Shown here one piece after another: positions 12,284 to 45,712 of a DNA stretch of 64,000 nucleotides. How positions within the stretch are numbered: the stretch's first letter is position 1; every line of letters begins with the position of its first letter. A model generated the notes under the pieces. It worked only from the letters and a program-made list of their open reading frames with translations. It did no database searches and was not told the origin of the DNA. Source of the stretch: Escherichia coli (GTDB lineage: Bacteria; Pseudomonadota; Gammaproteobacteria; Enterobacterales; Enterobacteriaceae); the NCBI RefSeq assembly GCF_024700885.2, contig NZ_CP117016.1. One strand, 5' to 3'. Position numbers and translations under genes: made by a program.

Positions 12284-13420
12284 TCAATGATCCAAATAAA
12301 GATAATGCATCCAACTGGTCATTCTCAGCAGCACCTTCCGCATCACCGAAACATGGCTGAAATGGTCGGAGTAAACTGCCACCTGGGCGTAGATGCCGTC
12401 GGGTAAGGCATCGATATCAGCGTTAGGGTCCAGTTCAATGGTTCCCAGCACACCGTCCGTGCCGGGCACGACCGTTAATGATTGCAATACCCCCTGCGCC
12501 TGATAAGAACCGCCTGGCACGACAGGTAAAATACTGGTCAGTTTGCCGTGGAACACCTGCCCAGGTAGCGCGTTAAACACCACTTCCGCATCATCGCCGG
12601 GTTTCAGACGTAACAGCGAGTTTTGCCGAAATTGGGCGACAATTTGCCGTTTTTGCTCGGGGATGAAAACCATCACCGGACGCAACGGCAAGGCAGCTGC
12701 GTATGTACCTGGGCGGATCAGTACCTGAGTAACGTAGCCATTGCTCGGCGCGCGAATGACAGTCTGCTCAAGGTTATATTTTGCTTCAGTAAGTTGCGCT
12801 CTTAAGCTCACAATCTGCGATTGCTCGCCGTTAACCATACTATCGAGCTGGCTCTGGATCTGCGCCTGCTCCGCCACCGAGCCTTTCACCAGCGCATCCT
12901 GCGCGAGGAAATTTTGCCGCGCATCGTCGATGTCACGTTCCGAGAACGGATTCACCGCCGCCTGGCTGCCTTTCAGATAACGTTGATAATTATTAAACAG
13001 ACGGTCGCGCTCCGCTGAAACCTGGGTGGTGTTGGCCTGCGCTTCAGTGAGCTGCGCGCGCAGCGTCTTTATATTATGCGTCGCCGTCATCAGGTCAGCC
13101 TGAAGTCTGTCAACTCGCGCCTGGTAACGAACCGGGTCGAGCTTAAAAAGCACCTCGCCCTTTTGAATAAGCTGATTATTCTTGTCAGTGACTTCAGTAA
13201 CAATTCCCGTCACCTGTGGCGTGATGGGGATCGCAATCACTGCCTTTTGCGCGGTAAAAGTGTAAGGGTGGTTGTAGTTCATCAACAAAATCAAACCACT
13301 CACCAGAAACACGCCTCCCAGCGCCGCCGTCGCCAGCGTCCACTGATTTACCGGAATGCGGAAGATTTTAAAGACCGCCCACGCCAGCGCCACGTAAGTT
13401 AAAACAATCAATAGATCCAT
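12284..13420 (-). CDS. yibH: HlyD-family membrane fusion-like protein
   Basis: 378-aa ORF with N-terminal TM segment and long coiled-coil region; position upstream of mtlA. Confidence 0.8.
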
Positions 13421-13422
13421 AT

Positions 13423-13785
13423 TTAGATCTCCGGGAACGTGGAATAGTCAGTCTTTTTCTCGGCGGCGAGTTGATGCTCCAGCCGGGAAATTCGGTCAGA
13501 AAGTGCGGCGATTTCCGGGTCAGCCGCTTTCTCCTGCGACGCAACATGTGACTGCATACCCCAGCCACGCTCCGGTTGATAGAGCGTCGCCCAGATCCAC
13601 AGAAACGGCCAGATAACATGCAGAGTAAACAGGCTCACCCAGCCCGCCGTATGAATAGCGTCGGCATGGGGATGGTTGCGCTTTTTGGCAATCAGATAAG
13701 GGATGTCATGTATCGCGATGATTCCATAAAAAATCACCAGAAAGACGAAGATCAGCACTCCCAACGCGAAATAGTTTAGAAACAT
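13423..13785 (-). CDS. yibI: small inner membrane protein (DUF3302-like)
   Basis: 120-aa ORF with two hydrophobic segments; 2-nt gap downstream of it to yibH, co-oriented. Confidence 0.75.
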
Positions 13786-14001
13786 ATCTGCCTCGGATTC
13801 ACGTTTATCGGTGTTGTTTTTTGGCTGGCAGCCAGAAGGGAGTCAGGCTGATATTTTGACAATAATTCGGGTTCGCGATTCTCGCCATAACACCAAAGAA
13901 TAATTTTTAGAGGTGATGAGTTGCTTAGTTACATAACGATTTTATGACGAAGGCATAACATGCTGCAGATCACATCAGGTGAACGCCGTAAGAAAATATC
14001 T

Positions 14002-14178
14002 TGTGATTCAGATCACAAAGATTCAACAAACTAACAAAACAAAAATGTGACATTACTCACATTTAAATGCCATTTTTAGCGAAAATCGCCGCCTTGTTGC
14101 TTTTTTACACAGTCGTTTTGTGATGAGCATCACGTCAATTACCTCTCTACCCCCTATATTTATGTGACTGATATCACA
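14002..14178 (+). promoter_or_regulatory. mtlA regulatory region with four CRP-like palindromes (TGTGA-N6-TCACA)
   Basis: tgtgattcagatcaca 14002-14017; tgtgacattactcaca 14046-14061; tgtgatgagcatcacg 14119-14134; tgtgactgatatcaca 14163-14178; all upstream of mtlA ATG 14322. Confidence 0.75.
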
Positions 14179-14321
14179 CAAAAGGCCGTCGACTGGACAG
14201 TTAACCGATTCAGTGCCAGATTTCGCAGTATCTACAAGGTCCGGCTACCTCTGCCGCCACATTAACAAAAAACCTCGGGCTTCCAGCCTGCGCGACAGCA
14301 AACATAAGAAGGGGTGTTTTT

Positions 14322-16235
14322 ATGTCATCCGATATTAAGATCAAAGTGCAAAGCTTTGGTCGTTTCCTCAGCAACATGGTGATGCCAAATATCGGCGCGT
14401 TTATCGCGTGGGGTATCATCACCGCGTTATTTATTCCAACAGGGTGGTTACCGAACGAAACGCTGGCGAAGCTGGTCGGGCCAATGATCACTTATCTCCT
14501 GCCGCTGCTGATCGGTTATACCGGTGGTAAGCTGGTAGGCGGCGAACGTGGCGGTGTAGTCGGTGCCATCACCACCATGGGCGTTATCGTCGGCGCAGAT
14601 ATGCCAATGTTCCTTGGTTCTATGATTGCAGGTCCGCTGGGCGGCTGGTGCATTAAGCACTTCGACCGCTGGGTAGACGGTAAGATCAAATCCGGTTTTG
14701 AGATGCTGGTGAATAACTTCTCCGCAGGCATCATCGGGATGATCCTCGCTATTCTGGCATTCCTCGGCATTGGCCCGATTGTTGAAGCCCTGTCCAAAAT
14801 GCTGGCTGCGGGCGTTAACTTCATGGTTGTCCATGACATGCTGCCGCTGGCGTCTATCTTTGTTGAACCGGCGAAAATCCTGTTCCTCAACAACGCCATT
14901 AACCACGGTATCTTCTCGCCGCTGGGTATTCAGCAGTCCCATGAACTGGGTAAATCCATCTTCTTCCTGATTGAAGCTAACCCAGGTCCGGGTATGGGCG
15001 TGCTGCTGGCGTACATGTTCTTTGGTCGTGGTAGCGCTAAACAGTCTGCGGGCGGTGCGGCAATCATCCACTTCCTGGGCGGTATCCACGAAATCTACTT
15101 CCCGTATGTGCTGATGAATCCGCGTCTGATTCTGGCCGTTATCCTCGGTGGTATGACTGGCGTGTTCACGCTGACTATCCTGGGCGGTGGTCTGGTTTCT
15201 CCGGCATCTCCGGGTTCTATCCTTGCTGTACTGGCGATGACACCAAAAGGTGCTTATTTCGCTAACATCGCGGGTGTGTGTGCGGCGATGGCTGTCTCCT
15301 TCGTTGTCTCTGCTATTTTGCTGAAAACCAGCAAAGTGAAAGAAGAAGATGATATTGAAGCAGCAACTCGTCGTATGCAGGACATGAAAGCTGAGTCTAA
15401 AGGTGCGTCTCCGCTGTCTGCGGGCGATGTGACTAACGACCTGAGCCACGTACGTAAAATCATCGTTGCCTGTGATGCCGGTATGGGTTCCAGTGCAATG
15501 GGCGCAGGCGTGCTGCGTAAGAAAATTCAGGATGCAGGTCTGTCGCAGATTTCTGTTACTAACAGCGCGATCAACAACCTGCCGCCAGATGTGGACCTGG
15601 TCATCACTCACCGTGACCTGACCGAACGCGCTATGCGCCAGGTTCCGCAGGCACAGCATATTTCGCTGACCAACTTCCTCGACAGCGGCTTGTACACCAG
15701 CCTGACCGAACGTCTGGTTGCTGCCCAGCGCCATACTGAAAACGAAGTGAAAGTGAAAGACAGTCTGAAAGACAGCTTTGACGATTCCAATGCTAACCTG
15801 TTCAAGCTAGGCGCGGAGAACATCTTCCTCGGTCGCAAAGCGGCCACCAAAGAAGAAGCGATTCGTTTTGCTGGCGAGCAACTGGTGAAAGGCGGTTACG
15901 TTGAGCCGGAATACGTTCAGGCGATGCTGGATCGTGAAAAACTGACCCCGACTTATCTGGGTGAGTCTATCGCGGTGCCACACGGTACGGTTGAAGCGAA
16001 AGATCGCGTACTGAAAACGGGCGTGGTGTTCTGCCAGTACCCGGAAGGCGTGCGCTTCGGTGAAGAAGAAGATGACATTGCCCGTCTGGTGATTGGTATT
16101 GCTGCCCGTAACAACGAGCACATTCAGGTTATCACCAGCCTGACCAATGCACTGGATGATGAATCCGTCATCGAGCGTCTGGCACACACCACCAGCGTGG
16201 ATGAAGTGCTGGAACTGCTGGCAGGTCGTAAGTAA
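14322..16235 (+). CDS. mtlA: PTS mannitol-specific EIICBA component
   Basis: 637-aa ORF, N-terminus [31 protein letters not shown] matches recalled MtlA; full length. Confidence 0.97.
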
Positions 16236-16245
16236 TCCAATCCTA

Positions 16246-16301
16246 CCCTCTCCTCACGGAGAGGGTTTGGGTGAGGGAAAAGCCTCACCCCAGCCCTCTC
16301 G
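16246..16301. repeat. GC-rich nested palindromic element in the mtlA-mtlD intergenic region
   Basis: ccctctcc(16246-16253)-tcac-ggagaggg(16258-16265); gggtgagg(16269-16276)-gaaaag-cctcaccc(16283-16290); a third ccctctcg copy at 16294-16301 could pair alternatively with ggagaggg. Confidence 0.6.
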
Positions 16302-16329
16302 GGTAAAAACATTGATGAAGGTTAATACT

Positions 16330-17478
16330 ATGAAAGCATTACATTTTGGCGCAGGTAATATCGGTCGTGGCTTTATCGGTAAACTGCTGGCAGACGCGGG
16401 TATCCAACTGACGTTTGCCGATGTCAATCAGGTGGTACTTGATGCCCTGAATGCCCGTCATAGCTATCAGGTTCATGTGGTCGGTGAAACCGAGCAGGTA
16501 GATACCGTTTCCGGCGTCAATGCCGTCAGCAGCATTGGTGATGATGTCGTTGATCTGATTGCTCAGGTTGATTTAGTCACTACCGCCGTTGGTCCGGTTG
16601 TGCTGGAACGTATTGCTCCGGCAATCGCCAAAGGGCTGGTGAAACGTAAAGAACAAGGTAATGAATCCCCGCTGAACATTATCGCCTGTGAAAACATGGT
16701 ACGCGGCACCACGCAGCTGAAAGGCCATGTGATGAACGCCCTGCCGGAAGATGCCAAAGCGTGGGTAGAAGAACACGTTGGCTTTGTCGATTCCGCCGTT
16801 GACCGCATCGTGCCGCCTTCGGCTTCTGCAACCAACGATCCGCTGGAAGTGACGGTAGAAACATTCAGCGAATGGATTGTTGATAAAACCCAGTTCAAAG
16901 GCGCGCTGCCGAACATCCCAGGAATGGAGTTAACCGACAACCTGATGGCATTTGTCGAACGTAAACTCTTCACCCTGAATACAGGTCATGCTATAACCGC
17001 GTACCTCGGAAAACTGGCCGGTCATCAGACCATTCGTGACGCTATTCTCGACGAGAAAATCCGCGCGGTGGTAAAAGGTGCGATGGAAGAAAGTGGTGCA
17101 GTATTGATCAAGCGCTACGGCTTTGACGCAGACAAACATGCGGCGTACATCCGGAAAATCCTCGGTCGTTTCGAGAACCCGTATCTGAAAGATGATGTAG
17201 AGCGCGTAGGCCGTCAGCCGCTGCGTAAACTGAGTGCTGGCGACCGTCTGATCAAGCCACTGCTCGGAACGCTGGAATATGGTCTGCCACATAAAAACCT
17301 GATTGAAGGTATTGCCGCTGCAATGCACTTCCGCAGTGAAGATGATCCGCAGGCTCAGGAACTGGCAGCACTGATCGCTGACAAAGGTCCGCAGGCGGCG
17401 CTGGCACAGATTTCCGGTCTTGATGCCAACAGCGAGGTTGTATCCGAGGCGGTAACCGCTTATAAAGCAATGCAATAA
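16330..17478 (+). CDS. mtlD: mannitol-1-phosphate 5-dehydrogenase
   Basis: start at internal ATG 16330 ([20 protein letters not shown], Rossmann motif) gives 382 aa; the longer track ORF from 16147 runs through the intergenic palindromes. Confidence 0.96.
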
Positions 17479-18065
17479 TGGTGGACCAGGCGCAGGATAC
17501 CCTGCGCCCGAATAACAGATTGTCAGATATGCAGGCAACAATGGAACAAACCCAGGCCTTTGAAAACCGTGTGCTTGAGCGTCTGAATGCTGGCAAAACC
17601 GTGCGAAGCTTTCTGATCACCGCCGTCGAGCTTTTGACCGAGGCGGTAAATCTTCTGGTGCTTCAGGTATTCCGCAAAGACGATTACGCGGTGAAGTATG
17701 CTGTAGAACCGTTACTCGACGGCGACGGTCCGCTGGGCGATCTTTCTGTGCGTTTAAAACTCATTTACGGGTTGGGCGTCATTAACCGCCAGGAATACGA
17801 AGATGCGGAACTGCTGATGGCATTGCGTGAAGAGCTAAATCACGACGGCAACGAGTACGCGTTTACCGACGACGAAATCCTTGGACCCTTTGGTGAACTG
17901 CATTGCGTGGCGGCGTTACCACCGCCGCCACAGTTTGAACCTGCAGACTCCAGTTTGTATGCAATGCAAATTCAGCGTTACCAACAGGCTGTGCGATCAA
18001 CAATGGTCCTTTCACTGACAGAGCTGATTTCCAAAATCAGCTTAAAAAAAGCCTTCCAAAAGTAA
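17478..18065 (+). CDS. mtlR: mannitol operon repressor
   Basis: 195-aa ORF; ATG overlaps the mtlD stop (TAATG); operon position. Confidence 0.93.
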   Translation: MVDQAQDTLRPNNRLSDMQATMEQTQAFENRVLERLNAGKTVRSFLITAVELLTEAVNLLVLQVFRKDDYAVKYAVEPLLDGDGPLGDLSVRLKLIYGLGVINRQEYEDAELLMALREELNHDGNEYAFTDDEILGPFGELHCVAALPPPPQFEPADSSLYAMQIQRYQQAVRSTMVLSLTELISKISLKKAFQK

Positions 18066-44458: not shown

Positions 44459-45712
44459 TTATTGTGGTTCATTTTTACTCAAAAACGATATAGACAGGAA
44501 GAGGCACACAATCCACGATGCCGGTATTGGTTTAGCATGTGTAATGACATCACTAATGCCAAATAACATAATAGAAGCAGGGAAAACCAAGAGTATATAT
44601 TTTTTCTCTCGTATACAGTAATAGATCATTGCAACATAGAACATAATAAGAACAAGAAGACCAATTTTTCCTTTCGTGGAAAGAGATTCCACAATTTCGT
44701 TATGCATATGTACATCAAGGAATAATAAAGCTCCACTATAAATATTATTTTCTGCACTTAATGCTTTTATCTTTTCAGCACGCTGCTCAAGAGATTGCCA
44801 ATTAAAACCATCAGGACTTCCTTTAATTCCTGCATTAACCATTGCAAAACGTGCTCCGACCGAGGATTGACTGTTATTTTTTGTAGCATATGAAATAACA
44901 TCAGCTTTTAATGAATTAATTCGCCTATCAATTTCCTTATTAAATATCAAACCACAAGCAAGTAGCAATATAAAAACACCACTCAATCCTTTAAATAAAA
45001 ACACTTTTTGATCACGATGCTGAAGAAATAATATGACCATAATCATAAGTGGGAATGTGAAAATTGCCGCACGCGTTCCTGTCATCATTACTGCTGCAAA
45101 GCTTAAAGCAAAGTTAGCATAAAATAGAAACCATTTATATTTCGATTGCATTTTTATGAATACAATTGAAGAATATAAAGTTGTAAATGTAATCACATAA
45201 GCCGCAATAGTCGCTGCCCCCATCTGACCAATATTCCCATTCATGGCGGAGAGGGGAATGCGGTCTGCATGCAAATATATCCCTTGATAATATGCTCTAC
45301 ATAGCATGATTATTTGAACTAAGATAGCTGAAATAAAATGTAGTTTTTCATTTTGCCTGAATTTATTTTTACTTAGTAATAAAAATGTCAACGAGCTAAA
45401 TACTAATAGTTTTCCAGACTCAAGGTAGCCTCGATAAGCATTTCTATATACTACATCTTCTGTTTTATAAAATTCATACCATATAAGGTTCATTGCACCC
45501 AAAAGAAGTAAACCAAGAATTAATATAATGACATTTTTATTATAATTGTGCTTTTTATTTACAATTAATAAGAAAAGAGAAAATGCACCTGTCGCATTAA
45601 TTATTTTAGTGGTGATATTAAGATCAATTGGCACAAACAACAAACCGATTAAATACAATAAAAAAATAAAATTACAGCTATTATTTCGAAATTGCTCAAT
45701 TTTTACTTCCAC
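44459..45712 (-). CDS. waaL: O-antigen ligase
   Basis: 417-aa polytopic membrane ORF, AT-rich; position at the end of the waa outer-core operon. Confidence 0.85.
   Translation of the reverse strand: MEVKIEQFRNNSCNFIFLLYLIGLLFVPIDLNITTKIINATGAFSLFLLIVNKKHNYNKNVIILILGLLLLGAMNLIWYEFYKTEDVVYRNAYRGYLESGKLLVFSSLTFLLLSKNKFRQNEKLHFISAILVQIIMLCRAYYQGIYLHADRIPLSAMNGNIGQMGAATIAAYVITFTTLYSSIVFIKMQSKYKWFLFYANFALSFAAVMMTGTRAAIFTFPLMIMVILFLQHRDQKVFLFKGLSGVFILLLACGLIFNKEIDRRINSLKADVISYATKNNSQSSVGARFAMVNAGIKGSPDGFNWQSLEQRAEKIKALSAENNIYSGALLFLDVHMHNEIVESLSTKGKIGLLVLIMFYVAMIYYCIREKKYILLVFPASIMLFGISDVITHAKPIPASWIVCLFLSISFLSKNEPQ

Follow-up and report, generated by a model that had tools for sequence, protein, structure and literature searches.

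CRP-type palindromes upstream of mtlA in Escherichia coli as sites CRP2–CRP5 of the known mtlADR operator

The spacer between the divergent genes yibI and mtlA of Escherichia coli carries a dense cluster of CRP-type palindromes, which raises the question of whether these are functionless chance matches in an AT-rich spacer, control elements of yibIH, or parts of an operator that belongs to the mannitol operon. The DNA analysed here, referred to as the window, is a 64-kb stretch of one E. coli genome. An earlier sequence-only reading of this window had claimed four TGTGA-N6-TCACA sites upstream of mtlA, three of them perfect in both half-sites and one ending in TCACG, had called the array unusually dense for a single promoter, and had related it to the known multi-CRP architecture of the mtl promoter.

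The CRP core consensus is TGTGA-N6-TCACA, with G4 and C13 as the weightiest positions (PMC3105977). The whole window was searched with this pattern allowing at most one mismatch, and site strength was expressed as core-match counts, which were set against null models. Five matches of at least 9/10 were found, four of which cluster before mtlA exactly where the earlier reading had placed them (Table 1), including all three 10/10 matches of the window, which sit in the yibI–mtlA spacer. The mismatch in the 9/10 member of the cluster is confined to the last position (TCACG), leaving G4 and C13 intact. The gene downstream is indeed mtlA, as shown by its score against the profile of the mannitol PTS transporter IICBA (Table 1). 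The fifth match of the window (45182, 9/10) falls within a 417-aa ORF and was treated as chance. Around it, at 45032-45197, three CRP-like cores occur in 165 bp (8/10 at 45032 and 45056, 9/10 at 45182), all within the same ORF (- strand, 44459-45712), and these are probably chance matches.

Table 1. Coordinates in the window of the genes, CRP sites, putative promoter elements, conserved spacer motifs and repeat copies at the mtl locus
Feature	Position	Strand	Sequence	Core match	Centre (position relative to +1)	Remarks
yibH	12284-13420	-				
yibI	13423-13785	-				start at 13785, divergent from mtlA
31-nt repeat, first copy	13920-13950		GTTGCTTAGTTACATAACGATTTTATGACGA			
CRP1, weak fifth site	13959-13974		CATGCTGCAGATCACA	7/10	13966.5 (-262.5)	
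Spacer motif	13992-13998		AAAAATA			5' of CRP2
CRP2	14002-14017		TGTGATTCAGATCACA	10/10	14009.5 (-219.5)	
Spacer motif	14025-14030		AACAAA			near midpoint of CRP2-CRP3 spacer
CRP3	14046-14061		TGTGACATTACTCACA	10/10	14053.5 (-175.5)	
31-nt repeat, second copy	14096-14126		GTTGCTTTTTTACACAGTCGTTTTGTGATGA			
Spacer motif	14101-14109		TTTTTACAC			17-25 bp 5' of CRP4 centre
CRP4	14119-14134		TGTGATGAGCATCACG	9/10	14126.5 (-102.5)	TCACG
CRP5, promoter-proximal	14163-14178		TGTGACTGATATCACA	10/10	14170.5 (-58.5)	
Putative -35 hexamer	14194-14199	+	TGGACA			from start site implied by published site positions
Candidate Cra (FruR) operator	14201-14214	-	ACTGAATCGGTTAA			in -35/-10 spacer
Putative -10 hexamer	14217-14222	+	CAGATT			17-bp spacer after TGGACA
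Inferred +1 of mtlADR	14229	+				CRP5 centre 14170.5 + 58.5, published S1-mapped numbering
mtlA, mannitol PTS enzyme IICBA	14322-16235	+				1324 bits vs NF011663 (PTS mannitol transporter IICBA)
mtlD, mannitol-1-phosphate 5-dehydrogenase, 382 aa	16330-17478	+				
mtlR, repressor	17478-18065	+				NF008234 (MltR family), 256 bits; collinear with K-12 mtlR

The total of five matches is modestly above the mean of 1.86 in shuffled windows, and five were reached in 3 of 100 shuffles; the whole-window count is unremarkable, and it is the clustering that stands out. The composition of the 536-bp yibI–mtlA spacer predicts only 0.018 sites scoring 9/10 or better, with a Poisson probability of about 5e-9 for four or more, and when the spacer was simulated 20,000 times with a first-order Markov model, two sites were the most that any run contained. 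The cluster is not due to chance. The centres of the four sites are 44, 73 and 44 bp apart. Pairs of sites of at least 8/10 at a distance of 43–46 bp occur only twice in the 64-kb window, namely as CRP2/CRP3 and CRP4/CRP5.

A recent study (Lee et al., NAR 2026, 54:gkag751, PMC13421365) assigns five CRP sites to the mtl operator, whose centres lie at -262.5, -219.5, -175.5, -102.5 and -58.5 and are thus 43, 44, 73 and 44 bp apart. This five-site architecture is credited to Ramseier & Saier 1995 (Microbiology 141:1901) in the later literature. In the published operator, CRP1 keeps 7 of the 10 conserved nucleotides and CRP2 and CRP3 keep all 10 (PMC13421365). The four palindromes of the window are therefore assigned to CRP2–CRP5, because their spacings and centres agree with the published ones; the assignment is made by spacing, core score and the promoter implied by the 2026 paper. 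At the position expected for CRP1 (centre 13966.5), 43 bp upstream of CRP2, the core score is 7/10, agreeing with the published count, and the right half-site alone is good. The earlier reading thus held as to CRP and as to the known multi-CRP promoter, whose CRP2–CRP5 spacings are the 44/73/44 bp found here, but CRP1 escaped it, as did the role of the 43–46-bp spacing in recruiting the repressor MtlR. We regard it as nearly certain that the four palindromes are CRP2–CRP5 of the mtlADR operator, with the weak CRP1 43 bp further upstream, and that they act through the CRP/MtlR mechanism. The CRP array of mtlA is already known in detail; the reading is correct and is no discovery.

Earlier genome-wide work had also singled out this region. 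In a genomic SELEX experiment with CRP, the yibI/mtlA spacer came second in clone number (38 clones; PMC3105977), and a PhyloScan analysis based on a CRP matrix puts it at the head of four of the six columns of its top-20 table under the name mtlA and of a fifth under yibI (PMC1794230). The matrix scan that the earlier reading had proposed as a check is therefore already in print. Binding of cAMP-CRP to the mtl sites was observed by EMSA using the K-12 sequence (PMC13421365), whose half-sites are identical to those of the present strain.

Compared with the K-12 mtlADR operator, the present locus has the same 43/44/73/44-bp spacings and the same flanks, yibI on one side and mtlA-mtlD-mtlR on the other, and the differences are at the strain level only. 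The 536-bp spacer differs from that of K-12 MG1655 by 13 substitutions and no indels; the 50 half-site positions of CRP1–CRP5 are free of substitutions, and the 30 N6 positions contain five (one in CRP1, none in CRP2, one in CRP3, two in CRP4 and one in CRP5). The N6 differences in CRP1, CRP3, CRP4 and CRP5 could cause slight shifts in affinity. A 901-bp query that takes in the spacer and its flanks (13600-14500) has matches of 100% identity in several E. coli chromosomes, and of 5426 complete genomes of the species, 5404 contain it. Further downstream, the mtlA–mtlD spacer (16236-16329) measures 94 bp here vs. 229 bp in K-12, in which an extra 135-bp REP/BIME-like palindrome block (GCCTGATGCGCTACGCTTATCAGGCC ... 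GCCGGATAAGGCGCTTACGCCGCATCCGGC), absent from this strain, is found.

The function of the individual sites is known from published experiments. The mtl promoter is weak and is activated by CRP, whose binding needs cAMP, and a crp deletion strain does not grow on mannitol (PMC13421365). Chromosomal replacement of single sites showed CRP2, CRP4 and CRP5 to be essential, CRP3 to be of minor importance and CRP1, which is poorly occupied, to be dispensable; CRP5 was proposed to contact RNA polymerase (PMC13421365). MtlR, a repressor devoid of a DNA-binding domain, acts by bridging two CRP dimers. Its supershift in EMSA requires sites 43–46 bp apart, with an optimum of 44–45 bp, and it binds fragments with CRP1-2, CRP2-3 or CRP4-5, but not the CRP3-4 fragment (73 bp); a malK operator re-spaced to 44 bp is bound as well (PMC13421365). 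Induction occurs by sequestration, in which dephospho-EII-Mtl keeps MtlR at the membrane, and dephospho-HPr competes for MtlR, giving glucose priority over mannitol (PMC13421365). The MtlR-CRP-DNA ternary complex and its relief by dephospho-EII-Mtl were reported for both K-12 and S. enterica (PMC13421365).

In the present strain, the CRP1-2, CRP2-3 and CRP4-5 spacings of 43, 44 and 44 bp all lie in the 43–46-bp range over which MtlR supershifts, and a gene of the MtlR family (profile match of 256 bits) shares the operon with the paired CRP sites, as an MtlR-CRP-DNA operator requires. At high cAMP, CRP dimers would occupy CRP2, CRP3, CRP4 and CRP5, and the dimer at CRP5 (about -58.5) would aid the recruitment of RNA polymerase to TGGACA-17-CAGATT. 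The upstream dimers would also be required, probably through shaping of the DNA, and the 73-bp gap, which puts CRP3 and CRP4 on one helix face (about seven turns), may play an architectural role. The 44-bp pairs CRP2/3 and CRP4/5 would then serve as docking platforms for an MtlR dimer. During mannitol transport, dephosphorylated EII-Mtl (MtlA) would draw MtlR to the membrane, leading to induction of the operon, and in the presence of glucose dephospho-HPr would free MtlR from EII-Mtl.

The conservation of this arrangement was surveyed across species using a degenerate pattern for the conserved N-terminal peptide of MtlA, by which loci from 120 species were retrieved. Sites of at least 8/10 were scanned up to 700 nt upstream, and the counts in Table 2 cover the loci with at least 450 nt upstream.

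Table 2. CRP-site arrangements upstream of mtlA by lineage (sites of at least 8/10)
Lineage	Loci	Four sites at 43-46/72-74/43-46 bp	Any 43-46-bp pair
Enterobacterales	44	43	44
Aeromonadales	8	7	8
Orbales	7	0	7 (43-44 bp)
Pasteurellales	2	0	2 (43-44 bp)
Vibrionales	15	1	10
Firmicutes	12	0	0
Actinobacteria	21	0	0

The spacings are 44/73/44 in 36 Enterobacterales species, 44/72/44 in five and 44/74/44 in two, and they are 45/73/44 in six Aeromonadales species and 45/73/43 in one; with the threshold lowered to 7/10, 44/73/43 is seen in many Vibrionales. No 43–46-bp pair of sites of at least 8/10 was found upstream of mtlA in the 33 Gram-positive loci. Among 50 species, CRP2 has a mean core match of 9.68/10 and CRP3, CRP4 and CRP5 are also conserved, and conservation of CRP1 is confined to the close relatives of Escherichia. 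The information content in these 50 species is 1.71–1.82 bits for the core vs. 0.38–0.48 for N6, values that are inflated by the selection of sites of at least 8/10, and unlike them the frequency of 43 in 44 Enterobacterales is an unbiased statistic.

Other arrangements were noted in the same survey. The Pasteurellales loci (Actinobacillus, Cricetibacter) carry three perfect CRP cores at 40/44 bp, and several Vibrionales (Vibrio, Enterovibrio) have extra upstream sites 36–45 bp and 51 bp apart before a 44–45-bp pair, both of which are lineage-specific variants of the array. In 18 of 23 actinobacterial mtlA loci (Mycolicibacterium, Mycobacterium, Gordonia, Nocardioides) there is a single conserved palindrome, ATGTGAY-N4-RTCACC, with a 9/10 CRP core. 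Only its centre varies, and it lies 100–132 nt 5' of the conserved MtlA codons, either upstream of or within the coding sequence; a CRP site of mycobacterial type is one possible reading, some other operator a second.

The promoter elements listed in Table 1 are putative, being placed from the start site that the published site positions imply. A generic sigma-70 scan of the spacer found no consensus promoter, which is expected because the promoter is weak and activator-dependent, and is no counter-evidence. The motif 'agaTt' in the putative -10 is the best-conserved promoter element across the 50 species and the window, with TAGAGT in Yersinia; the putative -35 is conserved as 'ctggaca' in the Enterobacteriaceae listed and is TACGC in Yersinia, Providencia and Acerihabitans. 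The layout of mtlAp is that of Class III, with at least two CRP sites (here five) in front of a weak sigma-70 promoter and a proximal site that is class I-like. However, the CRP5 centre at -58.5 leaves 46.5 bp to the first base of the putative -10. A canonical class I site, at -61.5, would be 3 bp farther away, and therefore CRP5 on its own is not easily reconciled with simple class I activation. The S1-mapped mtl start site may also be worth re-measuring.

Between the two hexamers lies a match to the Cra (FruR) consensus, which we take to be RSTGAAWCSNTHHW. Enterobacteriaceae keep this candidate operator, whereas Yersinia and Providencia do not, and its placement between -35 and -10 would suit the reported repression by Cra. 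Cra and Fis sites were reported in the mtl promoter without positions (PMC13421365). The DNA between the CRP sites is conserved in part as well, since all three spacer motifs of Table 1 (AAAAATA, AACAAA and TTTTTACAC) are kept across the 50 surveyed species. These motifs might serve as Fis sites or as bending elements, or they might be DNA that lies close to MtlR. In the published work, the spacers were described as sharing no mutual similarity, and their cross-species conservation was left uncommented (PMC13421365).

The conserved motifs, taken together with the reported binding of Fis and Cra to the region and with the Cra-consensus match on the - strand, could suggest a sandwich of the CytR type or with another co-regulator, in which a DNA-binding repressor sits between the CRP dimers with the spacer motifs as its operator, and MtlR does not act alone. 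In CytR-type promoters the CRP sites are about 52–53 bp apart, in contrast to the 44 bp found here. Moreover, the supershift needs just purified MtlR, CRP and DNA, MtlR also binds when an arbitrary insert sets the malK sites to 44 bp, and repression by MtlR is intact after deletion of cra or fis (PMC13421365). A second repressor of this kind has only a small chance of being part of the operator, and bridging of CRP dimers by MtlR remains the preferred reading.

It was also considered whether the array chiefly controls the divergent yibIH rather than mtlA. The sites do lie within the divergent spacer, the region is labelled 'yibI' in some PhyloScan rankings (PMC1794230), and Shimada et al. place both flanking genes downstream of CRP sites (PMC3105977). 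However, among the 39 species with a four-site array and at least 1.5 kb upstream, a yibI homologue was found at the locus in 7 and none in 32, and therefore the array belongs with mtlA. The CRP5 centre also keeps a near constant distance of 199–206 nt to the conserved N-terminal codons of MtlA that served as the search anchor in Enterobacteriaceae, and chromosomal site mutants lose mtlD expression and growth on mannitol (PMC13421365). Control chiefly of yibIH is very improbable on this evidence; a secondary effect of the array on yibI in E. coli is possible. As for functionless chance palindromes in an AT-rich spacer, the modest excess in the whole window is compatible with them, but the spacer statistics and the K-12 substitutions, which miss every half-site position, are not, and the idea is refuted, with practically no probability left to it, because the sites and their spacings are kept in 43 of 44 Enterobacterales and 7 of 8 Aeromonadales and because binding and mutant data have been published (PMC13421365, PMC3105977).

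With the palindromes taken as CRP2–CRP5 of the mtlADR operator, the distance between the two pairs deserves attention. This gap is as tightly conserved as the 44-bp spacings, measuring 72–74 bp throughout 50 species that belong to the Enterobacterales and Aeromonadales. With a helical repeat of 10.5 bp, 73 bp corresponds to 6.95 turns, and therefore CRP3 and CRP4 are in phase. The one exception among the Enterobacterales, Edwardsiella hoshinae, has spacings of 44/63/44 (sites at -351.5, -307.5, -244.5 and -200.5 from the pattern match), and its gap of 63 bp (6.00 turns) is shorter by 10 bp, or one helical turn, so that the phase of CRP3 and CRP4 is kept, in what is a single data point. The conserved 72–74-bp gap, the loss of one turn in Edwardsiella and the conservation of short spacer motifs hint that the 44/73/44 geometry may be under selection as a whole, with activation and repression both working through one wrapped or looped (CRP)4-(MtlR)2 particle of fixed shape, a tentative proposal that we consider less likely than not. 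The conservation of gap, phase and motifs would be compatible with such a fixed higher-order complex and does not prove one. Such a complex, like helical-phase-dependent remote activation, was raised only as a possibility, with no cross-species test, by Lee et al., who examined the operator architecture in four other species (PMC13421365).

A tandem duplication of two site pairs (117-bp period) was considered and rejected as the origin of the present-day sequence: the repeat search returned only the CRP cores and one 31-nt repeat, and the pair spacers have no mutual similarity. The two copies of this 31-nt direct repeat (Table 1) are 71% identical; the first closes with a degenerate TATGA, and the second reaches into CRP4, where it takes in sequence of the left half. 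The repeat may be due to chance or may be a relic of module duplication.

Several other systems resemble the mtl operator in part. The malEp-malKp region, credited to Vidal-Ingigliardi & Raibaud 1991, contains three to four adjacent CRP sites and, like mtl, forms a higher-order nucleoprotein complex before a sugar-transport operon. However, the specific regulator of the mal region is an activator, MalT, and that of mtl is a repressor, and CRP2 and CRP3 of malK are 34 bp apart and do not support MtlR binding unless re-spaced to 44 bp (PMC13421365). In CytR-CRP complexes (e.g., at deoP2), as a passage of the 2026 paper relates, the repressor contacts two DNA-bound CRP dimers as MtlR does (PMC13421365), but CytR itself binds DNA, through a domain and at an operator of its own, MtlR has no such domain, and the spacing of the CRP sites differs too. 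The pap operon, also treated in a passage of that paper, is activated by remote CRP at -215 in a helical-phase-dependent manner (PMC13421365), and mtl likewise has an essential remote site, CRP2 at -219.5. The phase dependence of pap is paralleled in mtl by the 73-bp (or 63-bp) gap that keeps CRP3 and CRP4 in phase; in contrast, pap relies on one remote site along with Lrp and PapI, whereas mtl uses four CRP dimers.

The mtl spacer is among the densest and highest-affinity CRP regions of E. coli, and the 2026 work showed the mtl operator to be the docking platform from which MtlR derives its promoter specificity by site spacing alone (PMC13421365). To this, the present analysis adds a small comparative increment: the four-site geometry and the in-phase 73-bp gap are kept across Enterobacterales and Aeromonadales and are seen in many Vibrionales. 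This conservation of geometry supports the published suggestion of an architectural role for the upstream sites.
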